Assembly: GCA_009692925.1 (NCBI GenBank)
Contig: SHYG01000002.1
Span: 1 to 61,020 of the forward strand
DNA: 61,020 nucleotides
Direction: 5' to 3'
Source: Dehalococcoidia bacterium
GTDB lineage: Bacteria > Chloroflexota > Dehalococcoidia > Lucifugimonadales > UBA3495
The notes below the pieces were generated by a model. It searched no databases and was not told where the DNA came from. It was given only the letters and a program-made list of their open reading frames with translations. Shown piece after piece: positions 1 through 53,504 of the stretch (positions are counted from its first letter, which is position 1; each line of letters starts with the position of its first letter). The translations under genes and the position numbers were made by a program.

Positions 1-725
1 AGCAGGGGCACATCCTGTAAGGCGCGCTTCACTTCAAATCCGCAGGGCATCAGAATAACTGCCTCCGGCTGGCTGGCCACCACTTCCGGCCACTCCATGC
101 GAAAGGAACCAGTCTCCTTGTTGCCGAAACAGTTCACCCCGCCGGCCAGCTCCACCATCTCCGGCACCCAATGGCCGCCGCACATCAGGGGGTCTGCCCA
201 CTCCAGCACCAGCGTCCGGGGCTTCTGGGTGGCCTGGGCTGCCCGCTCCGCCACCCGGTCAATGCGCTGCTGCAACTGTGCGGCCAGTTCCTCCGCCTCC
301 GCGGCCTTGCCGGTGGCGCGGCCCAGCTTCCGCAGGTCTTCCAGCACGTCGCTCAGGTACTGAGGGTCCAGGGAAAGAACCTCCGGCTGCTTGGGAAGGG
401 CCACACTCGCCTCGGCCACCTGCCGAGTGGAGATTGCTCAAACCTCGCAGATGGCCTGGGTCAGCAGCAAGTCCGGCTCCGCCGCCTGTAGCAACTCTTG
501 GTTAATGTCGTATATTCCCAGTCCCTGTTGCAGCCGTTCGCCAATGACCTTGCTGATCTCGCCGCTGGTAGGCTGCTGGCCGTCAAACACGCTGCGCACC
601 ACTATGGGCTTGGTCCGGGCGTCGGGCGGGTAGTCGCACTCAAAAGTCACGCCATAAAGCTGGTCTTGCAGCCCCAGCGCATAGACCATCTCGGTGGCGC
701 TGGGCAAGAATGAGCAGATTCGCAT
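1..725 (-). CDS. TroA/BtuF-like (cobalamin-binding-type) substrate-binding protein, runs off window start; in-frame TGA at 440..438 (candidate selenocysteine, otherwise nonsense pseudogene)
   Basis: Starts [18 protein letters not shown] like the paralog at 52581..53504. The frame stays open for 145 codons after the TGA to the window edge. The TGA aligns with the second Cys of CEVC in the paralog. A hairpin at 411..427 lies 10 nt 3' of the TGA. Confidence 0.6.
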
Positions 726-795
726 TGGTCTCCTCCCGGAACCGTCACCGTCCGTATCAGCCTGTATCTTAGCCGCCAGGCTGGGAAGGCGCAAG

Positions 796-1620
796 CTAGA
801 ACCAGTCGCCAATAATCTTCCCCAGCCCTCCGATGCTCAGCCAGTAGTAAATTACGAAGACTCCCGCCAGAACTATCAGCACCGCGCTGGCTCGCTCCAC
901 GTAGGGCATCGCCCGCCGCAGGAGCTTGCCCGCCGCGCCCTGGAAGGCCGCGGTGCCCAGGGTCAGCGCCAGCAGGGTTGCCCCCATGCCCAGGGAGTAG
1001 CTCAGGAACTGCCACAACCCGCCGATGAAGTTGTCGGCGGTCAAAGAGCTGCCCACCACTATCAGGAAGATGGGCAAGGTGCAGCTTAACGAGGCGATGC
1101 CATACGCGATGCCAAACAGGAAATACCCCAGGAACGCCTTCACCGGCGATGAAGCTCTACTATCTCCCCGGGGCGAGATTCGTGCGGAAAGCCGGCTGGC
1201 GGCGCCGAAGTAGAGGTGCCCGCGCTCCAGCAGCATCCAGGCGCCCAGTCCCAACATCAGCCCGCCGATGGTCAGCCCGGCCCAAGGCATTACTCCCACC
1301 AGGAAGCGCCCTCCGGCGCTGATGACCGCCCCGGCGACGCCAAAGAGCAGCACAAACCCCAGCGTCACCGCCAGCGACACCAGCAGCCCCTTGACCATCC
1401 GGCCCGCCAATTTGGCGGACCGTAAGCTGGCGCCTGAAGCGGCATCCCCCGTGTCGCCAAGGAACAGCGAGATGTACGCCGGCAGCAGCGCAAAGCCGCA
1501 GGGGTTCACCGTGGCCAGCATGCCGCTGCCAAAGGCATATCCCACCGGCAGCGACTCCACCACCGTGCCGCCTAGCCCCGCCACCAGGGAGAGCACCGCT
1601 TCGATAAAATGCTCCATCAT
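796..1620 (-). CDS. CcdA/DsbD-family cytochrome c biogenesis / thiol-disulfide transmembrane electron transporter
   Basis: 274-aa polytopic membrane ORF with the two signature Cys contexts ([12 protein letters not shown] and [10 protein letters not shown]). Confidence 0.8.
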
Positions 1621-2594: not shown

Positions 2595-4156
2595 TTGGAA
2601 TCTTGGGAGATGGAGGTGATGCGTTCGTCTGTGGCGCTGGCGTCGTTCTCGTACCAGCCTTCCCAGGCGGAGGCGGCCGCTGGCACCTTGCTGGCTACCG
2701 TAACTTTGCCTGGAAACACCCGCAGCGTAGGCCTGGCCTTCGATGGCACCTACGTGATGGCCCCCACAGGCGGCGCCGGCACCAGCGGCTGTGCGTCTAC
2801 GACTATTAAAATCTATACTGCGCCCCCCCCGGGAACGGCGCCGCAGCATTGGTAGCCACTAACAGGCTGCTGAAAAACCCCGATTTTGCGAAAAATGGAC
2901 GGACTCTCAGATACGAAAATTGGGACGATTTCGGGCCGTCGACCCCTTTTTCAGCACCCTGCTAAAGACCGTCAAGGACGCCCTTGGCCCCAGTGGCGTC
3001 CTGGTAACCATCGGCGCCATCGACTGGGACGTCAGTCGGGGCAAGTTATGGGCGGGGTACAACGGTAATGTCTACCTGATTGACATCGTCGGGACCGGCA
3101 TTGGTGTCGACGAAGACGTGGTGGCAACGCAGCAGTTCCTCGCCGCCGCAGGTGCGGTTCCACTGGTTGATGGTTTGGCCTGGGACTCGGGAGACGATAC
3201 GCTCTACTATATATAGCCCAGACGGGGACTGCGACGTGTACCATTACTCGCTGACCGCGGGCAACGGCGGTCTCGGCTTCCTGATGAACACCGTGACGCC
3301 CTTGAACAACGCCGTGCCTCCGGTTTCCGATTGCCACGTCATCGGTGTGGCCATCGGGTCGGCGAACAGCCTTTACATCGGGCGGGACTGGGACGCTGAA
3401 ATCCGCGGGGTGAACAAGGCCACCGGCGTCTTTGTATCCACCTTCGCCACCACCGCCGGGCGCGTGGAGGACCTGGTCTGCGACCCGGTTACCTACGCCC
3501 CCAAGGAGGCCATTCTGGCCAAGGACGCCTTTAACTCGCTTTACGAGGCCTTCGAGGTGGAGACCGGCACCTGCCCGCTTCCGCCGAAGATCGAGAAGCA
3601 CTGGACTGAGACCAACGTCTGCTTCGAGCGCGACACCGTGGAGCCGAGCGAGTGCCCCGGTGGCACCAGCCTGGGGACGCCGCTTCCCCTAGTCGGGGGG
3701 AACTACCAGGTGCAGGCGGTCACCAAGGGAGGGAAGGTGAGCTCCTACAACCCAGGGCAGATGTATGCCGTGTCGACGGTGACGGTCGCTGGGTTCACGC
3801 CTACGCTTACCATCACCGAGACCTACACCGACTGCGTTAACGACAATCCCGCGATCCTCGCCCTGAACCCAACGACAGGGGGAGGGAGGTTGGTGGTCGT
3901 CGAGGAGATAGGTGGCGTTCCGGTCCAGACGCACGACGCGAACTCTCCCGAGGTCAGCTTCTCCGGTAGCGTGGCGACCGTGACGCTGAGCAACGTCGCG
4001 GCCGGCTCCGTCATCCCCGTGTATGTGAAGTTCGGGCCTGGGTCGAAGGGACAGTTAATGAGCCTGTCCCAGACTTGCACGAACCTCAATGGAGCGTCGG
4101 ACGGCACCACCTCGGTCATCGCATCGGCGAACCTGCGGGTGGTGGACAAACCCTAA
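2595..4156 (+). pseudogene. decayed secreted beta-propeller (NHL/SMP-30-like repeats) plus C-terminal beta-rich domain protein
   Basis: Three ORF fragments (2595..2855, 2920..3216, 3080..4156) in different frames carry the same repeat style (VGLAFDGTYV, DGLAWDSGDDTLYY, VIGVAIGSANSLYIG). Lesions are a TAG at 2853..2855, a MITE at 2860..2964 and a 1-nt frame change in the TATATATA run at 3207..3214. Confidence 0.7.
2860..2964 (-). mobile_element. 105-bp MITE copy 1 (TA...TA flanked, about 20-bp terminal inverted repeats)
   Basis: Near-identical to 31201..31305 and 45573..45677 in reverse orientation. Ends are TAACAGGCTGCTGAAAAACCCC ... GGGGTCGAC-type and CTTTTTCAGCACCCTGCTA. Confidence 0.9.
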
Positions 4157-4176
4157 GCGTTTAGAAAGTCTCTGGC

Positions 4177-4223
4177 AAAAGCACCGGGGCGTCCCGATTG
4201 CATCGGGACGCCCCGGTGCTTTT
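4177..4223. terminator. bidirectional intrinsic terminator
   Basis: AAAA, then the perfect 18-bp stem GCACCGGGGCGTCCCGAT / ATCGGGACGCCCCGGTGC, then TTTT, between convergent genes. Confidence 0.8.
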
Positions 4224-4244
4224 GTCTCCCCAGGCTGGCCCGCC

Positions 4245-5216
4245 CTACTTGTTGATGTCCATCACCACTTTGATGACGTTATCCTCGTGCTGCTCATAGG
4301 TGTCGTAGGCCCGTTGCACGTCGGACAGGCCCATGCGGTGGGTTATCAGCTTGGCCGGGTCGCACCAACCCCGCTGGCGCAGGGCCACCAAATCCTTGAT
4401 CTGTGTCGTGGGGTCACCGCTGCGCGCGCCGGTGGTAGGCAGGATGGTCGGCATCTTGTCCATCAAGTTGTTGTGCTCCAGCGGCACAAACTTGTCCATC
4501 TGCACTCCGAAGACAATGACCGTGCCGAACTGGCGCACCTGGCTAAAGGCCAGATTGAAGGTGTCGGGGAAGCCGGCAGCCTCCACCGTGATGTCCGCGC
4601 CCACGCCCTTGGTAATCTCCGCCACCGCCTCCGCCAGGTCCTCGCGGTCGGGGTTAATGGGGTGCGTGGCGCCAAACTCCCTGGACTTGTCCAGGCGGTA
4701 GTCCAGCAGGTCGGCGGTGATGACGCTGCGCGCCCCCATGCGAGAGATGAGCATGGTAAAGCACAGGCCGATGCTGCCTTGGCCCAGCACCAGCACATTC
4801 TTGCCCAGCACGCTGCCCATGCGCTGGCAGGAGTACAGCACCGTGCCGGAGGGCTGACACATCACCCATTCGTCCAGCGGCCCCTCGTCCGGCAACAGAA
4901 CCATCCGTTTGGGGCTGGAGACCAGGTACTCCTGCAACCCCCCAAAGCCGTGGGCGGGGATCACGATAACCCGCTGGCCCTCCCGATAGCTGTCGGTCCG
5001 GCTGTCCACTACTATTCCGGCCACCTCGTGGCACGGCTGGCCCGGCTCCAGCGGGTAGTGCTCCTCGGACAGGATGGGGCCGTAGTGGGCGCGGATGTCG
5101 CTGCCGCACACCGAAACCCGCTCCAGCTTAATCAGACACTCCCCGTCCTTGGGCGCCGGCTGCTCCACGTCCTCAAACTCAAACCGCTTTGGCCCGACCA
5201 GTCGCGCTGCTCTCAT
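4245..5216 (-). CDS. zinc-dependent medium-chain alcohol/polyol dehydrogenase family protein
   Basis: 323 aa. N-terminal GroES-like region with VCGSDIRAHYG and a Rossmann segment VLVLGQGSIGL. Confidence 0.85.
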   Translation of the reverse strand: MRAARLVGPKRFEFEDVEQPAPKDGECLIKLERVSVCGSDIRAHYGPILSEEHYPLEPGQPCHEVAGIVVDSRTDSYREGQRVIVIPAHGFGGLQEYLVSSPKRMVLLPDEGPLDEWVMCQPSGTVLYSCQRMGSVLGKNVLVLGQGSIGLCFTMLISRMGARSVITADLLDYRLDKSREFGATHPINPDREDLAEAVAEITKGVGADITVEAAGFPDTFNLAFSQVRQFGTVIVFGVQMDKFVPLEHNNLMDKMPTILPTTGARSGDPTTQIKDLVALRQRGWCDPAKLITHRMGLSDVQRAYDTYEQHEDNVIKVVMDINK

Positions 5217-5456: not shown

Positions 5457-6350
5457 CTAGCCCGGCCACATGATCCAACCGGTGTGGTCGGTGCGCGCCC
5501 GCAGCACGTGGCCGCCGCCGGTAGTCACGTATAGCGTCCGCATGTCCGCGTCGCCAAAGCAGCAATTGGTGGGACGGTCCACCCGCAGAGGGTGGGTCTC
5601 CAGCACCTGGCCCGTGGGCGAGAACACATAGATCATCGGCCCCGGCCCGCCCTGCTCCCATCCGGCGCATGCCACGATGTTCCCGTCCATATCCAGAGTC
5701 ATGCCGTCCACGCCCCGGTGTACGCCTCGGTGGTCAATGCCGAAGGTGTGCAGCGTGGTGTAGCTCCCCAGAGTCCCGTCGTCGTTGATGGGATAGGCCC
5801 GCAGTTGCCGCGGCTGGTCTGGCGAATAGTCGCTCTGGGCCACGTACAGCGTCCTCTGGTCTCGGGACACCAGCACCCCGTTGGGCCGGCTGACATCGTA
5901 GGTAGCCCGGCCTAGCTCCCACTGGTCCTGTCCCGTGGGGTCGTGCCGCAGCACCGACATGTGGTCCAGCTCCTGCGGTCCCCAGTTGGGGTTGTAGGGG
6001 TCGGTGAACCAGATGCGGCCCTTCTTATCCACCGCTAGGTCGTTGGGGCTGTTATGGCGCTTGCCATCCAGCCGGTGGGGCAGCGAGGTGATGGTCTTCC
6101 GGTCCTTCTCAAAGCGTACTATTCGCCGCCCGCCGCTTTGGCACCCAAACAGGTTGCCCTTGGCGTCAAAGCACAGCCCGTTGGTGTGGTTGGTTCCGGT
6201 GAAGTACTCACTGGTCTCGCCGCTCTTGGGGTTGTACTGCATTATCCGGCTGCCCGGGATGTGGGTGAACAACACCGACTCCCCGGTCCAGACCGCGCCT
6301 TCCGCGGTCCCGCCAAAAGGTCCTGCCACCAGCTCAAAGTTCCACTCCAT
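5457..6350 (-). CDS. SMP-30/gluconolactonase/LRE-family beta-propeller protein
   Basis: 297 aa with NSPNDLAVDKKGRIWFTDP, PNGVLVS and DGMTLDMDGNI repeat signatures. Confidence 0.85.
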   Translation of the reverse strand: MEWNFELVAGPFGGTAEGAVWTGESVLFTHIPGSRIMQYNPKSGETSEYFTGTNHTNGLCFDAKGNLFGCQSGGRRIVRFEKDRKTITSLPHRLDGKRHNSPNDLAVDKKGRIWFTDPYNPNWGPQELDHMSVLRHDPTGQDQWELGRATYDVSRPNGVLVSRDQRTLYVAQSDYSPDQPRQLRAYPINDDGTLGSYTTLHTFGIDHRGVHRGVDGMTLDMDGNIVACAGWEQGGPGPMIYVFSPTGQVLETHPLRVDRPTNCCFGDADMRTLYVTTGGGHVLRARTDHTGWIMWPG

Positions 6351-21570: not shown

Positions 21571-22713
21571 ATGTGTCCAAACATGGTTGAAACCCACGCT
21601 AACTTGGCCGCTGGCGGTCAGCCGGTGGAGATGCTGCTCAACATGGGGCCGCAGCATCCCTCCACTCATGGCGTTTTCCGCCTGGTGCTCTGGATTGACG
21701 GCGAGAAGATCGTGCGGGCCGAGCCTCACATCGGCTACCTCCACCGCGGCTCGGAAAAGCTGTGCGAGGGGGAGCAGTACCACCAGGTCATCACCCTCTT
21801 CGACCGGCTGGACTACGTAGCCAACTTCAACAACGAGTGGGCCTACTGCCGGGCGGTGGAAAAGCTCATGGGGCTGGCGGTGCCGGAGCGGGCCGAGTAC
21901 GCGCGAGTAATCCTGGGGGAGCTGAACCGCATCGCCAGCCACCTGCTGTACGTGGGCACCATGGGGCTGGACGCCGGCGCCATGACCCCCTCCATGTTCT
22001 GCTTCCGGGGCCGGGAGCGGGTGCAAGCCCTCTTCGAGGCGGTCTCCGGCGCCCGCATGATGCACAACTACTTCCGCATCGGAGGCCTGAAGGAGGAGCT
22101 GCCGGAAAACTTCCGCCAGCTCATGTCCGGCCTGCTGCCCCTGCTCAAGAAGGATGTAGAAGAAAGCGACAAGATTCTGACCTTCAACGAGATTTTCCTG
22201 GCCCGGCTCAAAGGCGTGGGGGCCATCGGCGCTCCGGAAGCGGTGGACTTCGGCTTCACCGGCCCCTGTCTGCGGGCCTGCGGCGTGGAGTACGACTGCC
22301 GCCGGGCACAGCCCTACTCCGTCTACGACCGATTCGAGTTCGAGGTGCCGGTGGGTCTGGACGGCGACTGCTGGGATCGCCACTGGGTGCGGGTGCAGGA
22401 AATGTACCAGTCCCTGCGCATCATCGAGCAGGCCCTGGCGCAGATGCCGGAAGGCCCGGTCACATCGCCTCTGGGCCGTCGGCTCATCCGTCCGCCCAAG
22501 GGCGAGGTGTACGTGCGGGCGGAGAATCCCCGGGGCGAACTGGGCGTCTACCTGGTTAGCGACGGCACCGACAAGCCCTACAGGGTCAAGGTCCGCCCGC
22601 CATCCTTCTGCAACCTATCCGCCATCCAGCGCCTGCTGCAGAACTCCTGGATCGCCGACTCGGTGGTCATCCTGGGCTCCCTGGACATCGTCTTAGGGGA
22701 GGTGGACCGCTGA
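21571..22713 (+). CDS. nuoD: NADH-quinone oxidoreductase subunit D
   Basis: MGPQHPSTHGVFRL and C-terminal SLDIVLGEVDR. Confidence 0.95.
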   Translation: MCPNMVETHANLAAGGQPVEMLLNMGPQHPSTHGVFRLVLWIDGEKIVRAEPHIGYLHRGSEKLCEGEQYHQVITLFDRLDYVANFNNEWAYCRAVEKLMGLAVPERAEYARVILGELNRIASHLLYVGTMGLDAGAMTPSMFCFRGRERVQALFEAVSGARMMHNYFRIGGLKEELPENFRQLMSGLLPLLKKDVEESDKILTFNEIFLARLKGVGAIGAPEAVDFGFTGPCLRACGVEYDCRRAQPYSVYDRFEFEVPVGLDGDCWDRHWVRVQEMYQSLRIIEQALAQMPEGPVTSPLGRRLIRPPKGEVYVRAENPRGELGVYLVSDGTDKPYRVKVRPPSFCNLSAIQRLLQNSWIADSVVILGSLDIVLGEVDR

Positions 22714-31410: not shown

Positions 31411-33594
<2,184 letters not shown>

Positions 33595-42523: not shown

Positions 42524-45001
42524 ATGACCACCCCTTTCCGGCAGATTGAATTGCGCTATGACCCCACCGCCATCGACCGCAAGTGGCAGGAGCGCTGGGC
42601 TGCCGATGGCCTGTACCGGGTGCCCGATGACGACCCGCGCCCCAAGTGGTTTGAGATGACCATGTACCCCTATCCCTCGGGCGACCTGCACATCGGCCAC
42701 TGGTACGCCATGGCCCCCTCCGACTGCCACGCCCGCTTCCGCCGGATGCAGGGGTACAACGTGCTGCACCCCATCGGCTTCGACGCCTTCGGTCTGCCCG
42801 CGGAGAACGCCGCCATCAGCCGGGGCATCCACCCCCACACCTGGACCATGAGCAACATCGAAAACATGCGCCGCCAGCTCAAGTCCATGGGCGCCATCTA
42901 CGACTGGGAGCGGGAGATCATCTGCTGCCTGCCGGAATACTACCGCTGGAACCAGTGGCTCTTCCTGCAGCTCTACCGCGCCGGGCTGGCCTACCGGGCT
43001 AAGGCGCCGGTAGTGTGGTGCCCCTCCTGCCAGACGGTGCTGGCCAACGAGCAGGTGGTGGACGGCAGTTGCGAGCGCTGCCACACCGCCATCACCCGCC
43101 GCGATCTGGAGCAGTGGTTCTTCCGCATCACCAAGTACGCCGACCAGCTCCTGGACTTCACCGGGCTTTTGGACTGGCCGGAAAAAATCCTGACGATGCA
43201 GCAGAACTGGATTGGCCGCAGCGAGGGCGCGGAGATCGGCTTCGACATCTCCAGCCACCGTCTGGATGTTAAGGAGATTCGCACCTTCACCACCCGCATT
43301 GACACCATCTTTGGCGTCACCTTCATGGTCCTGGCGCCGGAGCACCCGTTAGTGCCCCGGCTCACCGCCCGGTCGCAGCACACCGCGGTGGCGGAGTACA
43401 TCGCCCAGGCCCGCCGCACCTCGGAGATTGAGCGCCAGTCCACCGACAAGGAGAAGACTGGGGTGTTCCTGGGCAGCTACGCCGTCAACCGGCTCAACGG
43501 AGAGCAGGTGCCCATCTTCATCGGCGACTACGTGCTCATGAGCTACGGCACCGGCGCGGTGATGGGCGTGCCCGCCCACGACGTCCGGGACTTCGACTTC
43601 GCCCGCAAGTACAACTTGCCCATCCGCCAGGTCATCGCCCCGGCCGCCTGGGACGGCAAGGAGCTGGCCGAGGCCTTCGTGGGCGACGGCTTCATGACCG
43701 CCTCCGCGCGCTACGACGGCATGACCAACCAGGAGGGCAAGCGGGCCATCGCTGAGGACATCGAGAAGAAAGGCTGGGGCAGCCGCACCGTGTCTTACCG
43801 GATACGGGACTGGCTCATCTCCCGCCAGCGGTACTGGGGCACTCCCATACCCATGATCTACTGCGACGCCTGCGGCATAGTGCCCGTGCTCGAGTCCGCC
43901 CTGCCGGTGCTGCTGCCCCCTGACGCCGAGTTCAAGCCCACCGGCGAGTCGCCGCTGGCGGCCCACCAGGGCTTTGTCAATACCACTTGCCCTCAGTGCG
44001 GCGCGCCCGCTCGCCGGGAGACCGACACCATGGACACCTTTGTGGACTCCTCCTGGTATATGTTCCGTTACACCAGCCCCCACTACGACCAGGGTCCATT
44101 TGACCCGGCGCTGATGCAGCAGTGGATGCCGGTGGACCAGTACACCGGCGGTGCCGAGCACGCGGTGATGCACCTGCTCTACTCCCGCTTCTTCACCAAG
44201 GCTCTGCGGGATTTGGGCCTGGTGGACTTCGGCGAGCCGTTCCTGCGCCTGTACAACCAGGGCATCATCCTGGGGGAAGACCACGAGAAGATGAGCAAGA
44301 GCCGGGGCAACGTGGTGAACCCCGACTTGGTGGTGGGCCAGTTGGGCGCCGACGCCACCCGCTGCTTCATGATGTTCATCGGCCCGTGGGATCAGGGCGG
44401 CCCCTGGAGCGACGTGGGAATAAATGGCGTCGCCCGCTGGCTCAACCGCGTTTGGGGGGTCATGGAGCACGACCCGAACCACCTGGATGCCGGAGCGGCC
44501 AACTCCCAGACGGTGCGGGCAACCCAGCGCCTGCTCCACCAGACCATTCGCAAGTGCTACCAGGACCTGGACCGCTTCAAGTTCAACACCACCATTGCCG
44601 CCCTCATGGAGCTGACCAACCACCTGAGCAAGGTGTGGGCCGAGGCCAGCGTGGACGCCGCCACCTGGCGCGATTGCACCAGAAACTTCTTGCTGATGCT
44701 GGCGCCCCTGGCGCCCCACATTGCTGAGGAGATGTGGGAGCGCGCCGGACACCCCTACAGCATCCACCAGCAGCCCTTCCCGAAGTGGGACGAAGAGACG
44801 GCCGCGGAGGACACCATCACCCTGGTGGTGCAGGTCAACGGCAAGGTGCGCGACCGCATCGAGGTGCCCGCGGGCATCAGCTCCGGCCAGGCCCAGGAGC
44901 TGGCCCTGGCCAGCCTCAAGGTGCAGAGCTACACCCAGGGCAAGGCGGTGCGCCAAGCCGTCTACGTGCCGGGAAAGCTGGTCAATGTAGTGGTGGGGTA
45001 G
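42524..45001 (+). CDS. leuS: leucine--tRNA ligase
   Basis: HIGH (LHIGHWY) and KMSKS motifs, 825 aa. TGCTATAAT extended -10 at 42482..42490. Confidence 0.95.
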   Translation: MTTPFRQIELRYDPTAIDRKWQERWAADGLYRVPDDDPRPKWFEMTMYPYPSGDLHIGHWYAMAPSDCHARFRRMQGYNVLHPIGFDAFGLPAENAAISRGIHPHTWTMSNIENMRRQLKSMGAIYDWEREIICCLPEYYRWNQWLFLQLYRAGLAYRAKAPVVWCPSCQTVLANEQVVDGSCERCHTAITRRDLEQWFFRITKYADQLLDFTGLLDWPEKILTMQQNWIGRSEGAEIGFDISSHRLDVKEIRTFTTRIDTIFGVTFMVLAPEHPLVPRLTARSQHTAVAEYIAQARRTSEIERQSTDKEKTGVFLGSYAVNRLNGEQVPIFIGDYVLMSYGTGAVMGVPAHDVRDFDFARKYNLPIRQVIAPAAWDGKELAEAFVGDGFMTASARYDGMTNQEGKRAIAEDIEKKGWGSRTVSYRIRDWLISRQRYWGTPIPMIYCDACGIVPVLESALPVLLPPDAEFKPTGESPLAAHQGFVNTTCPQCGAPARRETDTMDTFVDSSWYMFRYTSPHYDQGPFDPALMQQWMPVDQYTGGAEHAVMHLLYSRFFTKALRDLGLVDFGEPFLRLYNQGIILGEDHEKMSKSRGNVVNPDLVVGQLGADATRCFMMFIGPWDQGGPWSDVGINGVARWLNRVWGVMEHDPNHLDAGAANSQTVRATQRLLHQTIRKCYQDLDRFKFNTTIAALMELTNHLSKVWAEASVDAATWRDCTRNFLLMLAPLAPHIAEEMWERAGHPYSIHQQPFPKWDEETAAEDTITLVVQVNGKVRDRIEVPAGISSGQAQELALASLKVQSYTQGKAVRQAVYVPGKLVNVVVG

Positions 45002-45811: not shown

Positions 45812-45865
45812 ACCGGCATAGTCGCAGCTACCCAGCGGGCGGCTTGGCTCTTAACAAATTATATG

Positions 45866-46167
45866 TCCCGCGGCACCCCAGGGGTTTAATTAGGGAAGAC
45901 GGTGCAAGTCCGTCACGGTTGCGCCACTGTGTGCGGGGAGCTGGCCGAAGCTAGCACCACTGCCCCCCCCAGATAAAATCCGGGTCGGGATGGGAAGGTA
46001 TCGGTCCAGCCTGGATTCGCAAGTCAGGAGACCTGCCCGGGTTTGATGGAGCCCCTGCACTGCGCCCAACAGAGATGGTTCCGTGGCATCCCTGCCCGTC
46101 GGCTTTTGTTCGAGGCTGGAAGCAGAATCATCCGTTCCCCTGGCCGCAGTAGGGCCAGGGGTTTTTT
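45866..46167 (+). promoter_or_regulatory. cobalamin (AdoCbl) riboswitch with terminator expression platform
   Basis: AGGGAAGACGGTGCAAGTCCGTCACGG...GCGCCACTGT core and B12 box AAGTCAGGAGACCTGCC (46021..46037). Terminator CCCCTGGCC-GCAGTAG-GGCCAGGGG-TTTTTT at 46137..46167. Confidence 0.85.
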
Positions 46168-46185
46168 AGTTGGCCGAGGTTTAGT

Positions 46186-46851
46186 TTGGTTATGAATGCC
46201 ATGTCCCTGGTGGAACGGTACGCCCTGCTCCCCGAGGAGATTGACCGGGAGAGTCTGCGGATGGTGGAAGCCAGCCTGCCCCGGTCGCTTGACCTTCGCG
46301 CCCAGGAGCGCTACGTGGTCTGCCGCATCGTGCGGGCCGAGGGCGACCCGGATATCGCCGCCAGCATACGCTTCAGCCCCGGCGCCGTGGAGCGCGGCCT
46401 GGCGGCGCTGGCATCCCACGCGGCGGTCATTACCGACGTTCGCATGGTGGAGGCAGGCATCTCCCGCGCCCTGCTCAAGCGCCACGGCGTCGCCACCCGC
46501 TGCATGATCGACGCCCCAGAGGTAGCCGCCCGCGCCCAGCGGGAGGGCACCACCCGCTCGGTGGCGGCGCTGCGGGAGCTGGCGCCCCACTTGAACGGCG
46601 CGGTGGTTGCCATCGGCAATGCCCCCACGGCGCTGCTGGCCCTGCTGGATTTGGTGGACGCGGGACAGGTGTCCCCCGCGCTGATTATCGGTATGCCCGT
46701 GGGCTTCGTCGCCTGCCCCGAGTCCAAGGACGAGCTGATGCGCCGTACCGCACCCTACATCACCATTCCCGGACGCCGGGGGGGCAGCTCCGCCGCCGCC
46801 GCCACGGTGAACGCCCTGTTGGACCTGCTGAGTCAGCGGGAGGCCAAATAA
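46186..46851 (+). CDS. cbiC: (cobalt-)precorrin-8 methylmutase
   Basis: CbiC/CobH pattern including AIGNAPTALLALLDLV. Start is TTG at 46186 or ATG at 46192. Confidence 0.9.
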   Translation: MVMNAMSLVERYALLPEEIDRESLRMVEASLPRSLDLRAQERYVVCRIVRAEGDPDIAASIRFSPGAVERGLAALASHAAVITDVRMVEAGISRALLKRHGVATRCMIDAPEVAARAQREGTTRSVAALRELAPHLNGAVVAIGNAPTALLALLDLVDAGQVSPALIIGMPVGFVACPESKDELMRRTAPYITIPGRRGGSSAAAATVNALLDLLSQREAK

Positions 46852-47774
46852 TGCCTAGAGCCGCCGCCCGGCCGCAAGACGCTGGACAACGTGTCCAGGC
46901 CCAGCAGGCGGACTGGGGCGTGATCATGCTCTGCCACGGCAGCCAGCGCGGCGGCAGCCGGGCCGAGTGCTCCTGCGTCTGGAGGCTGAACGGCTCCGAA
47001 CTCCCCGGATGGTGCCTCCAATGCCCCAGCACGCCGGTGGGCCTGCGCGAGACCGCCAGCCGGCTGCAAGAGCAGCTGACTCCGGAACGCGCCCAGGTGG
47101 TGCTGTCCTGCCTGGAGTTCATCCAGCCCCATCCGCCCCAAGCGGTGCGGGCCCTGGCCCTGCAGGGGTTGCGGCGCATCGTGATTGCGCCCTTCCTGCT
47201 GGGGCACGGCAAGCACGCCACCCTGGAGCTCCAAGAAGTGCTGGAAGACCTGCGCCGGGAAAACCCCCAGGCGCAGATTCACCTGGCCGGCGGACTGGGC
47301 GCTGACCCCCGCATTGCCGAGGTAGTGGTGGAGCGGGTGCGCGCCCTGGGCGGCCCGCCGGCGCGGCCCACGCAAGGACGTCCTGCGGGGGTGCTGGTGG
47401 TCAAGGCGGGCACCAAAACCCAGTACGATGACTGCCTCTGGCTGGCGGAGTTGGGCAGCATGGTGGAAAAAGGCCTGGGGTTGGGATATGCTGTGACCGT
47501 GGCCCAGTCGCATTACGGCGACCCTACCATGGAATCGGCGGTGGCCCGGCTGGTGGACCAGCGGAGGGTTTCATCCCTCACCTGCGTGCCCTACCTGCTG
47601 TTTCCCGGCTTGATATTGCAACGCAACGTGCTGGGAACCATGAGCCTCTTACAAGACCGGTATCCCGGCCTGCCCATGGCGGTCACGCCGCCCCTGGGCG
47701 CAGACCCGCGGTTGGCGGCGGTGGCCGCCGACCGCATCCAGGAAGTGTGGCGTCAGGTGGACGGCGCTGTCTGA
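46851..47774 (+). CDS. cbiX: sirohydrochlorin cobaltochelatase, two-domain CbiX type, with a Cys-rich insert
   Basis: Two CbiX-like halves (VIMLCHGS... and VLVVKAGTK...). FLLGHGKH motif. Insert CSCVWRLNGSELPGWCLQC. Confidence 0.75.
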   Translation: MPRAAARPQDAGQRVQAQQADWGVIMLCHGSQRGGSRAECSCVWRLNGSELPGWCLQCPSTPVGLRETASRLQEQLTPERAQVVLSCLEFIQPHPPQAVRALALQGLRRIVIAPFLLGHGKHATLELQEVLEDLRRENPQAQIHLAGGLGADPRIAEVVVERVRALGGPPARPTQGRPAGVLVVKAGTKTQYDDCLWLAELGSMVEKGLGLGYAVTVAQSHYGDPTMESAVARLVDQRRVSSLTCVPYLLFPGLILQRNVLGTMSLLQDRYPGLPMAVTPPLGADPRLAAVAADRIQEVWRQVDGAV

Positions 47775-47810
47775 AGTTGCCCTAGGCTAGAGCGGTCAAC
47801 GGCGAGGAAT

Positions 47811-49013
47811 ATGTCCGGCACACAGCCCGACGAAGAACACCCGGAGAGCGATTACAGCCGCCAGACGGTGAAGCGTCACGGCATGCGCACGGGCTACACC
47901 ACTGGCTCCTGCGCCGCCGCCGCTGCCAAGGCCGCCGCGCTGACCCTCCTCACCGGCCAGCCGGTGCATGAAGTGACGATCCACCTGCCCGTGGGGCGCG
48001 ACGTCACCTTCACCCTGCACCGGTGCCAGTGGGTAGACACGGGTAGACAAGTGTTGTGCTCGGTAATCAAGGACGGCGGCGACGACCCCGACGCGACCCA
48101 CGGCGCGGAGATCTGCGTCACCGTGTCCCTGGCCCCTGCCGGACAGACCGGGTTGCGCATTGTGGGCGGCCCCGGCGTGGGCATGGTCACCCGACCTGGC
48201 ACCGGCATCCCCGTTGGCGAGCCCGCCGTCACCCGCGTGCCCCGTCGCATGATGGCCGAGTCCCTGCAAGAGGCGGCCCGCAGCCAGGCGCTGCCCGAGG
48301 ACACCGGCTTCATTGCGGAAGTCTCCGTCACCGGCGGCGAAGAGATCGCCAAGAAGACTACCAACTCCCGCCTGGGAGTCATGGGCGGCATCTCCATCTT
48401 GGGCAGCACCGGAGTGGTGCAGCCCTTCTCCACCGCCGCCTGGCGCGCCAGCGTCCACCTGGCGATCGACGTGGCAGCGGCCAATGGCCTGACTCACATG
48501 GTATTGTCTACTGGCACCCGCAGCGAGGAGTACGCCAAAGGCTGCCTGGACCTGCCGGACATGGCCTATGTGGACGCGGGCATCTTCAGCGGTCCGGCCC
48601 TCAAGCGCTGCGTGATGCGCCAGATTCCTCGCGCTACCCACGTGGGCATGGTGGGCAAGTTCTCCAAGATGGCTATGGGCTACTTTGTCACTCACGTGGC
48701 TGGCAACCGGGTGGACCCAGTTTTCCTGGCCTCCCTGGCCGGCCAGTGCGGCGCATCCCCGCAGGTGCAGGAAGAGATGCGCGGAGCGGCCAGCGGGCGG
48801 CACTTCCAAGAAATTGCCCAGGCCAATGGCCTGCTGTCGGTGTTCCCGCTGATGTGCCAGATGGTCTGTCAGGAGAGCCTCAAACTTCTGGGCGATGACG
48901 CCGGAACTTTGGTTGTCGATGCGCTGTGCTTCGACTTTGACGGCACGCTGCTGGGTCATGCCTCCACCTCTCCCGAGGGCGTCCCGCTGGTGGCGGGCTC
49001 CGGGCGACGCTAG
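47811..49013 (+). CDS. cbiD: cobalt-precorrin-5B (C1)-methyltransferase
   Basis: MRTGYTTGSCAAAAAKAA. Confidence 0.9.
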   Translation: MSGTQPDEEHPESDYSRQTVKRHGMRTGYTTGSCAAAAAKAAALTLLTGQPVHEVTIHLPVGRDVTFTLHRCQWVDTGRQVLCSVIKDGGDDPDATHGAEICVTVSLAPAGQTGLRIVGGPGVGMVTRPGTGIPVGEPAVTRVPRRMMAESLQEAARSQALPEDTGFIAEVSVTGGEEIAKKTTNSRLGVMGGISILGSTGVVQPFSTAAWRASVHLAIDVAAANGLTHMVLSTGTRSEEYAKGCLDLPDMAYVDAGIFSGPALKRCVMRQIPRATHVGMVGKFSKMAMGYFVTHVAGNRVDPVFLASLAGQCGASPQVQEEMRGAASGRHFQEIAQANGLLSVFPLMCQMVCQESLKLLGDDAGTLVVDALCFDFDGTLLGHASTSPEGVPLVAGSGRR

Positions 49014-49039
49014 AGATAGCCCCGCAGGGTTCGGCAATT

Positions 49040-49666
49040 GTGACAGAGCATCAGAAGGTTAAGGACATCCCGGTATCCCCAGCCCGCAGCCTGGGCCTGC
49101 CTGACGACGCCTTCGAGCAGCGCCGCCCCCTGCGGGGCCAGATTACCAAGCGAGAAGTGCGGGCGGTCAGCCTGTACTCCCTGGGCTTGCGGCCCGACAG
49201 CGTGGTCTGGGACATCGGCGCGGGCACCGGTTCCGTGGCGCTGGAAGCGGCGCTCATCGCCCACCGCGGCAGGGTCTACGCCATCGAGCGGGACCCCGAA
49301 GGCCTGCTCCTCCTGGAACACAACGTGGCGCGGCTGGGGCAAGGCAACGTGCAGGTCGTGCCTGGCGAGGCGCCCGCCGCGCTGGCGGCATTGCCCGACC
49401 CGGACGCGGTGTTCGTGGGCGGCAGCGGCGGCCGGCTGGCGGGGGTGCTGGACGAAGTGGCCCGCCGGCTCAAGCCCCAGGGCCGGGTGGTGGTGAACCT
49501 GGCGGCGCTGGAGCGGGCCCAGGAGTCGTACCACCGGCTTCGGGATTTAGGTTTGGCTGTCGAGCTGGTGATGGTCAACGCCGCGCGGGGCAAGGAGTTG
49601 CCCGACGGCTCGGTGCGCCTGGAGGCGCTGAACCCGGTATTTGTGGTCACCGGCTGGCGCCAATAA
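49040..49666 (+). CDS. cbiT: cobalt-precorrin-6B (C15)-methyltransferase, decarboxylating
   Basis: ITKREVRAVSL...VWDIGAGTGSVALEAA. Confidence 0.85.
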   Translation: MTEHQKVKDIPVSPARSLGLPDDAFEQRRPLRGQITKREVRAVSLYSLGLRPDSVVWDIGAGTGSVALEAALIAHRGRVYAIERDPEGLLLLEHNVARLGQGNVQVVPGEAPAALAALPDPDAVFVGGSGGRLAGVLDEVARRLKPQGRVVVNLAALERAQESYHRLRDLGLAVELVMVNAARGKELPDGSVRLEALNPVFVVTGWRQ

Positions 49667-49696
49667 TGAACCAATGCGGTTTTCAGGAATGATCCG

Positions 49697-50428
49697 ATGA
49701 CTAGTAGGCGTTCCAAAGCGGCTTCCGGCACTCTGTACGGCGTGGGCGTGGGCCCCGGCGACCCGGAGCTGGTGACGCTCAAGGCCCACGGCGTCTTGCA
49801 GCGGGTGCCCATCATCTGCGTTCCGCAGTCGGAGACCAGCCAGGACAGCTACGCCCTCAGTATTGTCCGAGGGTTCCTGGACCTAAAGCGTCAGGAGATT
49901 CTGCGCATCAGCTTCCCCACCGACGACGCCCAGGGCGCGGCCCGTGCCTGGCGGGACGGCGCCGACGCCCTCGCCGTGCGGCTCCAGCAGGGTCAGGACG
50001 CGGCCTTCATCACGGAGGGCGACCCCATGCTCTACAGCACCTTCTCCTACGTGCTGGAGCACATCCGGTCTGTGTATCCTGCCATCCCGGTGGAGATTAT
50101 CCCCGGCGTTTCCTCCGTCATGGCGGCGGCGGCCAGCTCCGGCGTGCCGCTGGTTACCCACGGCCAGCGCCTGGCCATCCTGCCGGCGGTGTACGGCATT
50201 GACGACCTGCGGGAGGCCATCGCCAGCTACGATACCATCGTGCTGATGAAGGTGAACCGCACATTGTTGCAGGCCCTGGCCAGCCTGGAGCGGCTGGGTC
50301 TGGCGGGCAAGGGTGTCTACGTGCGGCGGGCCACCACCGACCGCGAGCAGGTGGTGCGAGACTTGAATCAACTAACTGAGGAGGACCTGGACTACTTCTC
50401 CCTCCTCATCATTCGGAAAGGTGAATAA
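49697..50428 (+). CDS. cbiL: (cobalt-)precorrin-2 C20-methyltransferase
   Basis: LYGVGVGPGDPELVTLKA. Confidence 0.85.
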   Translation: MTSRRSKAASGTLYGVGVGPGDPELVTLKAHGVLQRVPIICVPQSETSQDSYALSIVRGFLDLKRQEILRISFPTDDAQGAARAWRDGADALAVRLQQGQDAAFITEGDPMLYSTFSYVLEHIRSVYPAIPVEIIPGVSSVMAAAASSGVPLVTHGQRLAILPAVYGIDDLREAIASYDTIVLMKVNRTLLQALASLERLGLAGKGVYVRRATTDREQVVRDLNQLTEEDLDYFSLLIIRKGE

Positions 50429-51294
50429 TGCCTGGTATAAAGTCTCAGCCTAAGTCTACTGGCAAGGTCTACTTCATTGGCGGCGGGCCGGGCGACCCCG
50501 AGCTGCTCACCCTGAAGGCCAAGCGGCTCATCGAGTCGGCGGACGTGGTCATCTACGCCGACTCTTTGGTGCATCCATCCATTGTGGAGTTCGCCCGCCC
50601 CGGCGCGGAAGTCCACGGCAGCAAGACCCTCACCCTGGGCCAGATCATGGAGCTCACCCTCCAGGCCGTGAAGCAGGGCAAGGTTGTGGCCCGCATCCAA
50701 AGCGGCGACCCCTCCATCTACGGCGCCATGCTGGAGCAGATGCGGGTGCTGGAAGCCGAGGGCGTGGATTACGAGGTCATCCCCGGAGTCAGCTCTGCCT
50801 TCGCCGCCGCTGCCCGCCTCAAAGCGGAGCTCACGGTGCCCGGCGGGTCTCAGACCGTCATCCTCACCCGCGTGGAGGGCCGTGTGGCCATGCCTCCGGG
50901 GGAGCAGCTGGCCGGCCTGGCCGCCCACGGCGCCACTTTGGTGCTGTTCCTGAGCATCACCCGCATGTTCCGCATCGCCCGGGAGCTTCGGGCCGCCGGC
51001 TACGCCAAGGACACCCCGGTGGCGGTGGTCTACCGGGTGGGCTGGCCCGACGAGCTTATAATTCGCGGCACCCTGGCGGACATTACCCCCAAAGTGCGCG
51101 CGGCCAAGCTCACCCTGCAGGCCCTGATCCTGGTGGGCGGCGCCCTGGATCCCGAGTTGCGCCAGCCCCGGACCTCTGAGGAGCCCCCGGCGGCCTCTTC
51201 GCACCTTTACTCGGAAACCTACACCCACAAATACCGGAAGGCCAGAACCCGGCCCGCTGCCGCCCGCGCTGTCGCCAACGGCAGCGGCGACTAG
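50428..51294 (+). CDS. cbiF: (cobalt-)precorrin-4 C11-methyltransferase with C-terminal extension
   Basis: VYFIGGGPGDPELLTLKAKRLIESADVVIYADSLV. Confidence 0.9.
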   Translation: MPGIKSQPKSTGKVYFIGGGPGDPELLTLKAKRLIESADVVIYADSLVHPSIVEFARPGAEVHGSKTLTLGQIMELTLQAVKQGKVVARIQSGDPSIYGAMLEQMRVLEAEGVDYEVIPGVSSAFAAAARLKAELTVPGGSQTVILTRVEGRVAMPPGEQLAGLAAHGATLVLFLSITRMFRIARELRAAGYAKDTPVAVVYRVGWPDELIIRGTLADITPKVRAAKLTLQALILVGGALDPELRQPRTSEEPPAASSHLYSETYTHKYRKARTRPAAARAVANGSGD

Positions 51295-51325
51295 CCGGGG
51301 CGGCTCATCTGGCGCGGGCAGCCCC

Positions 51326-52477
51326 ATGACCAGCACCGCCATTGTCGCCATCTCCCGTCGCGGGGCGGCTCTGGCGCGCATCCTGGCGCAAGCCCTGCCC
51401 GGCGACGTGACCCTCTACCTGGACCGCCGGCATGTCGCGGAAGTCACTCCTGTGTCGCATCCGCAGACCGTGGCCTTTGACCTGCCCCTGCGCCCAGTGG
51501 TGCAGCACGCCTTCCGCGAGCACCAGCGGCTGGTGCTGTTCCTGCCCGTGGGCGCGGCGGTGCGGCTCCTGGCTCCCTGCCTGGAGGACAAGCACCAGGA
51601 CCCCGCGGTGGTGTGTGTGGACGACGCGGGGCGCTTCGCTGTCAGCCTGCTTTCTGGGCACCTGGGAGGCGCCGACCGCCTGGCGCAGGAGGTGGCTCGC
51701 GCCCTGGGAGCGGTGCCGGTCATCACCTCGGCATCCCACGTCACCGGCACTCTTGCGGTGGACTTGCTGGGCCAGGAATGGGGCTGGCGGCTAGAGGCGG
51801 ATCCGCTGGCGGTGACCCGGGCCAGCGCGGCGGTGGTCAACGGCGACCCGGTGGGTATTTGGCAGCAGACCGGCGAATCCCACTGGTGGCCCCAGGGCAC
51901 TCCGCTGCCCGCCAACCTGCGTGTCTACCCAACTGTCCAGGCGCTGGCAGAATCGCCGTCGGTGGCCGCCCTGGTGATTACCGACCAACTTGGCGTGGTT
52001 GACAACGGCCCCCGTAGGGGCGGGTTTCAAACCCGCCCCGTTCAAGATGTCCTGCCGGGTAAGCACCTGGTGGTGTACCGCCCTCGCAGTTTGGTGGCGG
52101 GAATGGGCTGCCGCCGGGGCGTGCCGGTGGATGAGCTGGAGGAGTTGCTGGCGGATACCTTCCAGTGCCATAACCTGTCGCTGGCCTGCCTGCGGAGCAT
52201 CGCCACCGCCGAGCTAAAGGGGAACGAGCCGGGTCTGCTGGCGCTGGCCCAACGCCACGGAGTGCCGCTAGTTTGCTATGGCGCGGAAGAACTGAACCGC
52301 GCCTTTGAGGACAGCGCGGGCGCAGGCGTCACACCCTCAGCGGCGCGGCGACTGCTGGGCGTGTGGGGCGTCGCCGAGCCGGCGGCGCTGCTGGCCTCCG
52401 GCGGTGGCGAGCTGTTAGTCCCCCGGCAGAAGGCGGCCAGAGCAACCATTGCGGTGGCGCGCGTGGCCTTCGCCTAG
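51326..52477 (+). CDS. cbiG: cobalt-precorrin-5A hydrolase
   Basis: CbiG N, middle and C domains (LVAGMGCRRG start of the C domain). A REP-like hairpin is inserted in-frame at 52014..52041. Confidence 0.85.
   Translation: MTSTAIVAISRRGAALARILAQALPGDVTLYLDRRHVAEVTPVSHPQTVAFDLPLRPVVQHAFREHQRLVLFLPVGAAVRLLAPCLEDKHQDPAVVCVDDAGRFAVSLLSGHLGGADRLAQEVARALGAVPVITSASHVTGTLAVDLLGQEWGWRLEADPLAVTRASAAVVNGDPVGIWQQTGESHWWPQGTPLPANLRVYPTVQALAESPSVAALVITDQLGVVDNGPRRGGFQTRPVQDVLPGKHLVVYRPRSLVAGMGCRRGVPVDELEELLADTFQCHNLSLACLRSIATAELKGNEPGLLALAQRHGVPLVCYGAEELNRAFEDSAGAGVTPSAARRLLGVWGVAEPAALLASGGGELLVPRQKAARATIAVARVAFA
52014..52041. repeat. REP-like hairpin GTAGGGGCGGGTTTCAAACCCGCCCCGT inside cbiG, in-frame (encodes RRGGFQTRP)
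   Basis: 10-bp stem GGGGCGGGTT/AACCCGCCCC. Confidence 0.8.
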
Positions 52478-52580: not shown

Positions 52581-53504
52581 TTAGCTCAGGTCTGCCTTGC
52601 GGAAGAGGCCAGGAGCAGCCAAACCGGCAAAGCGCTCTGGGTACATGGCCTCGGCCAGGGCCTCCATCACGTCCACCACCCTCGGCCCGTGGCGGCTGGG
52701 CACCCGGCCATCAAAGAGATACACCCGGTCCTGCCGCACCGCGGGCAGCTCCCGCCACCCGGCCTGGGCGGGCAACCAGCTTGCGGTCTCCAGGCCGGCT
52801 CGCTCCAAGTCAAAGGCGCAGGGCATCATCATTATGTAGTCCGGTTGGTAGTCTTGCACCTCAGACCAGGCCAGCTCCCGAGATATGCCCCACTTCTCCG
52901 CCAGCCCCTCGCTGCCGCCTGCCAGCTCCACCAACTCCGGCGTCCACTGGCCCGTGTTGCGCAGCGGCTCCAGCCAGTCCACGCACAGCACCCTGGGCCG
53001 TGCTCCGGCGCTTGCTACGCCCTCCTGCACCCGCGCCACTCGCTGCCGGAGCTGCTGCACTAGGGCGGCGGCGCGCTCCGGCACCAGGGCTGCTCCGCCG
53101 ATGGTCAGCAAGTTCTGAAAGATGTCCTCCAGACTGGCCGGGCGGAGGCTGACGATGGCGGGCTGGTAGTCCAGCACCTTGGCGGCGGTCTCAAACACCG
53201 ATCCGCTGCCCACGGCGCAGACCTCGCACAGCTCCTGGGTCAGGATCAGGTCCGGCTTCAATTCTCGCAGCAGGCCGCCGTCAATCCAGTGCAAGGGGTT
53301 GCCGGTGGCCCGCGCCTGCTGGACAATGGCGTCGATCTCGGTGCTGCTCAGACCGGCGATGTCGCGGATGCTGCGGCTGACCACCGGCTTGGACAACGCG
53401 GTGGCAGGGTAGTCGCACTTGTGGGACACGCCCACCAGTTGGTCGCCCAGTCCCAGGGCGTAGACCATCTCGGTGGCGCTGGGCAACAGCGAGCAGATGC
53501 GCAT
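52581..53504 (-). CDS. TroA/BtuF-like cobalamin-binding-type protein without signal peptide (Cys paralog of the gene at 1..725)
   Basis: 307 aa. [32 protein letters not shown]. Confidence 0.8.
   Translation of the reverse strand: MRICSLLPSATEMVYALGLGDQLVGVSHKCDYPATALSKPVVSRSIRDIAGLSSTEIDAIVQQARATGNPLHWIDGGLLRELKPDLILTQELCEVCAVGSGSVFETAAKVLDYQPAIVSLRPASLEDIFQNLLTIGGAALVPERAAALVQQLRQRVARVQEGVASAGARPRVLCVDWLEPLRNTGQWTPELVELAGGSEGLAEKWGISRELAWSEVQDYQPDYIMMMPCAFDLERAGLETASWLPAQAGWRELPAVRQDRVYLFDGRVPSRHGPRVVDVMEALAEAMYPERFAGLAAPGLFRKADLS

Follow-up and report, generated by a model that had tools for sequence, protein, structure and literature searches.

An in-frame TGA that almost certainly encodes selenocysteine in a BtuF-like protein of a Dehalococcoidia bacterium

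The gene at the start of a 61,020-nucleotide stretch of DNA from a Dehalococcoidia bacterium (assembly GCA_009692925.1, contig SHYG01000002.1, positions 1 to 61,020; "the window" below means the whole of this stretch) encodes a BtuF-like protein and is interrupted by a single in-frame TGA. Judged from comparison with its orthologs, this TGA is almost certainly a real selenocysteine (Sec) codon. The explanation that best accounts for the data as a whole, and that we consider very probable, is that the gene encodes a cytoplasmic selenoprotein with the BtuF fold, that Sec at position 96 is inserted by means of a Sec insertion sequence (SECIS) in the coding region, and that the protein belongs to a selenoprotein family that has already been listed. 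In the mechanism that we infer from sequence comparison, UGA-96 would be recoded by SelB and Sec-tRNA(Sec), drawn by the coding-region SECIS, the loop of which lies 16 nt past the UGA. The features of the gene are the following.

1..725, minus strand: BtuF-like selenoprotein gene, codons 1-241 of 311, from translation; the remaining 70 codons lie past the window start.
440..438, minus strand: UGA codon 96, predicted to be read as Sec, at the second position of the CxxC motif (C93-E-V-U96).
438..449, minus strand: codons of the predicted CxxU motif (Cys93 Glu94 Val95 Sec96), from translation and homolog alignment.
737..730, minus strand: Shine-Dalgarno sequence GGGAGGAG, read from the sequence, ending 4 nt 5' of the ATG.
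427..411, minus strand: candidate bacterial SECIS (bSECIS) core hairpin CUCGGC-AGGUG-GCCGAG, 17 nt, located 10 nt past the TGA, with a 6-bp stem and a 5-nt loop.

The open reading frame starts on the minus strand with an ATG at 725..723, and past the TGA at 440..438 it is open for 145 further codons, to base 1 of the window. An independent Logan assembly of another run (locus L001) has the same sequence and the same TGA. In L001 the gene is complete: it has 311 codons, is interrupted by one stop and ends with TAG, and gene callers break it into proteins of 95 and 204 amino acids. An earlier note on this DNA had placed the TGA where a CxxC motif would have its second Cys, with an open frame after it, and both the window and L001 confirm this. 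The note had also aligned a paralog at 52581..53504 straight across the stop. That alignment holds (45% identity, E = 1e-67), and LTQELCEVCAV of the paralog aligns opposite LTQAICEV[TGA]AI. It is likely from these and the following comparisons that a full-length 311-codon product would be synthesized.

The codon found at this position in other members of the family points to Sec. When orthologs were aligned, every called homolog had CxxC at this column, and 25 distinct loci from Dehalococcoidia/SAR202 genomes and metagenomes (55-89% identical) had TGA. These 25 loci (the Sec forms) comprise L001-L020, from genomes, and L082-L086, from a scan of metagenomes. A scan of genomes that used one genome per species returned 80 loci. 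The 19 best of these (L002-L020) are all from Dehalococcoidia or Chloroflexi, are 55-74% identical to the window protein, and have TGA at exactly codon 96. The five that the metagenome scan added came from marine and soil samples. Loci from L022 onward, which belong to other phyla, have TGC or TGT, and the codon is TGC or TGT in all 126 fetched near-full-length family loci other than the Sec forms.

The Sec forms also have the properties of intact genes. There is exactly one internal stop in each (25/25), and all of these stops fall in one alignment column. A locus that is 88% identical to the window gene (L169, GCA_041485445.1) has the same split into 95 and 204 amino acids. After the TGA, the median proportion of nonsynonymous differences (pN) among the 25 Sec forms is 0.22 and that of synonymous differences (pS) is 0.64, for a ratio of nonsynonymous to synonymous substitution (dN/dS) of ~0.19; before the TGA, dN/dS is 0.13. 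Divergence 3' of the TGA is thus not of the relaxed, pseudogene-like kind. One ortholog, at 6001..6923 of L021 (Dehalococcoidia chromosome OZ219936.1), is out of frame from ~17 codons in, which could reflect an assembly error or a real pseudogene. Owing to the frameshift, L021 is uninformative for the TGA column.

Elsewhere in the window TGA is a normal terminator. For example, the Pfam match of nuoD extends to the last position of the profile. Judged from the genes in the window, TGA is not reassigned in the code of this genome. Apart from the selenoprotein gene, a crude scan for genes interrupted by TGA gave no candidate in the window, only ordinary TGA stops (e.g., in a Fur-like and a LOG-like gene). 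Stop codons were also counted in 30 Pfam-supported genes of the window (e.g., 31920..33275, 42524..45001 and 21571..22713): there were 16 TAG, 7 TAA and 7 TGA. For a genome with 64% G+C, this small sample is rich in TAG and poor in TGA.

The SECIS-like hairpin that the earlier note had described at 411..427, 10 nt after the TGA, is present. Its loop is AGGUG (G at loop positions 2 and 3), the distance from the UGA to the loop is 16 nt, and its calculated stability is -9.3 kcal/mol. The published bSECIS model quoted in PMC13188914 specifies a loop of 3-9 nt, a stem of 4-16 bp, G in the first two loop positions, a spacing of 16-37 nt and a minimum free energy <= -7.5 kcal/mol, and the hairpin satisfies all of these constraints. 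It resembles the E. coli fdhF-type SECIS and the bSECISearch consensus in being a coding-region hairpin after the UGA, with G-G/U in a small apical loop, a 16-nt spacing and a stability under -7.5 kcal/mol. Its sequence is unrelated to that of the E. coli fdhF-type element.

Synonymous sites in the stem of the hairpin are constrained in the Sec forms. Counting from the TGA, codon +5 is CGG in 24/25, codon +6 is CAG in 25/25 and codon +8 is GCC in 24/25. In the loop, the Val codon is found with each of the four third bases, and the flanking Ala, Ser and Pro codons occur in all of their synonymous forms. The lone CAG at +5, in L020, is accompanied by GCU at +8, so that G-C is replaced by A-U in compensation. 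Of the 294 six-codon segments in the gene, the one that begins at +4 has the lowest entropy at third positions (0.50 bits vs a median of 1.33). Six close Cys forms (L162, L163, L165-L168) have the same peptide, S-R/Q-Q-V-A/T-E, encoded by a mixture of codons (CGC, CGT, CAA, GCG, GCA), and form no such hairpin. This evidence, which is comparative and does not come from any single sequence, supports the view that the hairpin behaves as a bacterial SECIS.

The family to which the window protein appears to belong has been listed before. A selenoprotein family named 'Cobalamin-binding protein BtuF' (domain cd01144, motif CxxU, one Sec), with RUA21600.1 as its representative, was tabulated in 2022 (PMC9312934), and the same BtuF/CxxU family is in a 2026 table, with MDE0719563.1 as its representative (PMC13188914). 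Both papers cite Peng et al. 2016 for the family; despite those citations, it is not mentioned in the accessible text or supplements of Peng et al. 2016. The published family and the window protein are alike in domain (PF01497/cd01144), in the CxxU motif and in the number of Sec residues (one). The published entry is a table row and is silent on the SECIS, the distribution, the location in the cell and the function. The window protein very likely belongs to this family, and we are highly confident that it is a real selenoprotein of the listed kind. The earlier note had proposed a new selenoprotein and knew of no selenoprotein form of the family. Its core reading of the gene as encoding a selenoprotein is right in our view. 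That the selenoprotein is new is not supported, given the two tables, and the novelty of the protein is low because the family is already in published selenoprotein lists.

The protein matches PF01497 (Peripla_BP_2) in Pfam with E = 3.6e-20. It matches only general models of NCBIfam, all far under their cutoffs, and the top match is BtuF (46.9 bits vs a cutoff of 234). There is no model specific to the family in NCBIfam release 20. Homologs number more than 6,700, span bacteria and archaea, and, in the Cys form, bear the name 'cobalamin-binding protein' given by the NCBI Prokaryotic Genome Annotation Pipeline (PGAP). We found no functional study in the literature of the Cys family (> 6,700 members) or of the Sec form. 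As a stand-in for the window protein, we made an AlphaFold2 (AF2) model of P0002, a Cys ortholog that is 70% identical to it. The model has a mean predicted local distance difference test score (pLDDT) of 92.9 and a predicted TM-score (pTM) of 0.91. Its top Foldseek matches in the PDB are binding proteins of class III whose ligands are heme, B12 and siderophores (RhuT, BtuF, ShuT). E values against heme and B12 binding proteins are 1e-17 to 1e-12, with 6e-17 for RhuT 5y8b, and Vibrio BtuF (5ysc) is also matched. Beta-strand 1 of the model is formed by the very first residues, and no signal peptide or N-terminal extension was found in any subfamily checked. It is well supported, from these comparisons, that the selenoprotein would be cytoplasmic, 311 residues long and of the BtuF/heme-binding (class III periplasmic-binding-protein) fold.

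Four Cys or Sec positions are invariant. Conservation of C30, C93, C/U96 and C228 is 100% across 151 near-full-length members, which come from archaea and from many phyla of bacteria. Residues 93 and 96 belonged to the search pattern behind this set; 30 and 228 did not. A fifth, C4, is present in 65% of the same members. In the P0002 model, each of the four residues lies 1-4 residues past a beta-strand of the N- or C-lobe, and the four probably line the cleft between the lobes. The loop with the CxxC motif is an insertion relative to 4m7o, the closest solved sequence.

Several results weigh against this account of the window gene as a SECIS-directed selenoprotein of the listed family. Neither the window nor any of the fetched loci yielded selA, selB, selD or tRNA-Sec: ARAGORN detected no tRNA-Sec in the window and 21 loci, and a regular expression for the N-terminal motif of SelD had no match in 1.37 Mb of fetched DNA. 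Taken alone, the hairpin is unremarkable in GC-rich sequence (z = -1.18), as 22/200 shuffles fold equally well or better. It matches no Rfam SECIS family, either in a search of the window at the gathering threshold or in a search of 300..560 at E <= 10. The covariation is thin, with one compensatory event and 3/6 stem pairs that never vary. Because of this thin formal covariation, the structural case draws mainly on the Sec-form-specific constraint at synonymous sites. The window protein was equated with the published family by matching descriptors (cd01144, CxxU and the PGAP name of the Cys homologs), and a cluster look-up of ten NCBI fragments gave accessions other than RUA21600.1 and MDE0719563.1. 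Lastly, no gene neighbour that indicates a pathway is conserved across the family.

Failure to find the Sec machinery in the available sequence favours selenium-free read-through, in which a near-cognate tRNA (Trp, Cys or Arg) or a Cys-charged tRNA-Sec would decode the UGA. Downstream hairpins can also stimulate read-through in general. However, the UGA substitutes for Cys and nothing else, and the hairpin matches the bSECIS model in both loop sequence and spacing. In addition, lineages nested within the Sec clade use TGC or TGT rather than retaining a leaky stop. The class is also documented as selenoprotein-rich: the BSepDB paper reports Dehalococcoidia metagenome-assembled genomes (MAGs) with 46 and 49 selenoprotein genes. 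We therefore consider read-through without selenium very unlikely.

Less likely again is that the protein is a conventional BtuF, that is, the periplasmic B12 receptor of a BtuCD importer that has Sec incidentally. The name of the Cys homologs, the top NCBIfam match and the presence of Vibrio BtuF among the best structural matches all suggest this, and distant Cys members are found near TonB-dependent receptors (18 loci) and FepC/BtuD-like ATPases (13 loci). The window protein does have much in common with BtuF of E. coli and Vibrio, RhuT, ShuT, PhuT and IsdE, which are receptors of ABC importers: two lobes joined by a long helix, Foldseek E values of 6e-17 to 3e-12 and a target-normalised TM-score of 0.8-0.86 for the P0002 model, and the N-terminal motifs RIxSLxPsxTE and DYP. 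In contrast to these proteins, it has no signal peptide, and its N-terminus goes straight into beta-strand 1. It also has four invariant Cys/Sec residues and the inserted CxxC/U loop, which solved BtuF and iron-binding proteins do not have. No permease or ATPase gene adjoins any Sec form; linked ones occur only in distant Cys subfamilies. Because the protein has no signal peptide and scores far under the equivalog cutoff, and because the Sec clade has no linked transporter genes, we conclude that it is not BtuF proper.

Two further explanations were weighed. Termination at the TGA followed by re-initiation would give separate polypeptides of 95 and ~200 amino acids, and starts (ATG, GTG or TTG) are indeed called in frame 11-25 codons past the TGA. 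However, the predicted restarts vary among orthologs (fragments of 192-214 amino acids, with ATG or GTG at codon +12 in 6/25). The break would also fall exactly at an invariant Cys within one lobe of a single fold, and a synonymously constrained SECIS-type hairpin would have no role. A split gene is thus highly improbable. The least credible explanation, which we dismiss, is that the TGA arose by nonsense mutation in a pseudogene, or that TGC/TGT was miscalled in a faulty sequence or assembly: a lone in-frame stop in a single sequence normally points to this, and gene callers and GenBank records give the locus as fragments, but the TGA is also in the independent assembly, and pseudogene and error are ruled out by one stop in one column in 25 genes, with synonymous sites near saturation (pS ~0.64) and no second stop or frameshift, together with purifying selection downstream (dN/dS ~0.19).

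If the protein is a cytoplasmic selenoprotein, as we favour, what might it do? Each of C30, C93, U96 and C228 follows a beta-strand at the edge that builds the ligand cleft in this fold, and the four would therefore most likely form one thiolate/selenolate site. We postulate that this site could bind a metal, a metal chelate or a cluster. Alternatively, the CxxU pair could be a redox pair that acts on a bound ligand. This functional proposal for the four residues is of low certainty. We suggest, tentatively, that a Cys3Sec site in the cleft might make the protein an intracellular factor, dependent on selenium, that carries or processes a metal, a corrinoid/tetrapyrrole or an Fe-S-type cluster; this is possible, and we do not regard it as the probable outcome.

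Sec in the architecture of a binding protein has a parallel in SaoB and SaoX of the SAO system (Haft and Gwadz, bioRxiv 10.1101/2022.07.06.499078), the Cys/Sec residues of which have been proposed as metal ligands in the cleft. SaoB and SaoX differ in that their family is related to amino-acid-type binding proteins (3VVE, 4ZV2), in having a CU or UxP motif and in being secreted or lipoproteins. Their genes belong to a SAO locus of nine genes, and their hosts are anaerobic Firmicutes, spirochaetes and deltaproteobacteria. Membership of the window protein in SaoB/SaoX was rejected: it has CxxU, no signal peptide and no SAO genes nearby.

Two other genes of the window bear on the context of the selenoprotein gene.

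796..1620, minus strand: probable CcdA/DsbD-family membrane protein of 274 amino acids, the upstream neighbour, with the motifs NPC...LLPAY and SC.LP (SCTLP).
52581..53504, minus strand: Cys paralog of 307 amino acids, with CEVC, 45% identical to the selenoprotein and convergent to the end of the cbi (cobalamin biosynthesis) cluster.

The protein encoded at 796..1620 has no Pfam match itself, even at E <= 10. Homologs that are 75-79% identical to it match PF02683 (DsbD_TM) and are named CcdA; the L169 ortholog has only a weak match to PF02683. Because these homologs carry PF02683 and the CcdA name, the identification of the upstream gene as CcdA/DsbD-type, first made in the earlier note, is reasonable. 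The possible overlap of this gene with the selenoprotein gene is ruled out by a 70-nt gap (726..795). The redox context that the same note had drawn from CcdA is not supported. Adjacency to CcdA occurs only in L001 (this organism) and the 88%-identical L169, and it is absent from the 19 Dehalococcoidia loci L002-L020. The redox context is thus not conserved for the selenoprotein, because other Sec-form loci have other neighbours: a LON-N-domain protein, queC/D/E/F, a RidA-like protein and a Kef-type antiporter. The LON-N-domain, queCDEF and Kef-type antiporter neighbours look like plain synteny.

Other genes were observed around members of the family. Beyond the window, 3' of the selenoprotein gene (contig of ERZ1305449; L001 2015..5618; L169 6657..12615), there are genes for DUF433, LON-N-domain, HNH, gamma-glutamyltranspeptidase and TIR-domain (ThsB-like) proteins, and in L169 these downstream genes are followed by phage capsid and protease genes. 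Within the window, the stretch at 45853..52477 (plus strand) contains a cobalamin riboswitch (85 bits), then cbiC, cbiX, cbiD, a methyltransferase gene, genes for two tetrapyrrole methylases, and cbiG. The Cys paralog is directly past cbiG, in convergent orientation, and such adjacency was not seen in other loci. The neighbours of Cys forms vary from locus to locus. Among L022-L161, which are Cys members from Acidobacteriota, Verrucomicrobiota, Nitrospirota and other phyla, a TonB-dependent receptor gene is within ~5 kb in 18 loci, and a FepC/BtuD-like ABC ATPase gene is within ~5 kb of the signal-peptide-less BtuF-like gene in 13. Two open reading frames (ORFs) recur in the same set, one of 235 amino acids (15 loci) and one of 243 amino acids (15 loci); judged by eye only, they resemble a Dph6/MJ0570-like ATP-binding protein and a short-chain dehydrogenase, respectively.

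Sequence databases indicate that the Sec form is common and mis-annotated. The best 120 database matches to the C-terminal part of the protein (P0121-P0239) are all fragments of 192-214 amino acids. They come from marine and other metagenomes, and those with a named source are from Tara Oceans or from Chloroflexi, SAR202 or Dehalococcoidia MAGs. One cluster of such C-terminal fragments is found on 233 contigs. Since the best 120 matches are all fragments, we conclude that the Sec form is often met and often mis-called: gene callers routinely split the family into pieces of 95 and ~200 amino acids in SAR202/Dehalococcoidia. The fragments are named 'hypothetical protein', 'ABC transporter substrate-binding protein' or 'iron complex transport system substrate-binding protein' (GenBank examples include HIB13655.1, MAX59919.1, HAI09720.1, MCH2538005.1, MBM3943778.1, MAM66489.1 and MAZ64605.1). 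Because of these misnomers and the lack of a specific model in NCBIfam, annotations of SAR202/Dehalococcoidia systematically miss the protein.

In a neighbour-joining tree, built without bootstrap support, a group of Cys forms (P0001-P0026) and, separately, P0016 fall inside the Sec clade. This arrangement suggests that Sec was gained once and that Cys then returned at least twice. The nested Cys lineages (L162, L163, L165-L168) no longer have the hairpin. In one of these loci, L165, a short-chain dehydrogenase gene beside the Cys-form ortholog (3962..4738, minus strand) has one in-frame stop (...CGRDER[stop]VQER...), which is probably unrelated to Sec because it is not at a Cys position. The nested Cys clades offer a clean natural Sec/Cys pair for asking what selenium adds at the site.

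The value that remains in this finding lies in the correction of annotations and in the function of a widespread cytoplasmic family with the BtuF fold. Public databases contain at least 120 clusters (at 90% identity) of the selenoprotein in the form of fragments. If the proposed cleft site is real, it would be a selenoprotein function outside the thioredoxin fold, previously undescribed, in SAR202-type Chloroflexota. In that case, the Cys paralog by the cbi cluster and the Cys relatives linked to TonB-dependent receptors and ABC ATPases would point to the handling of corrinoids or metal chelates.

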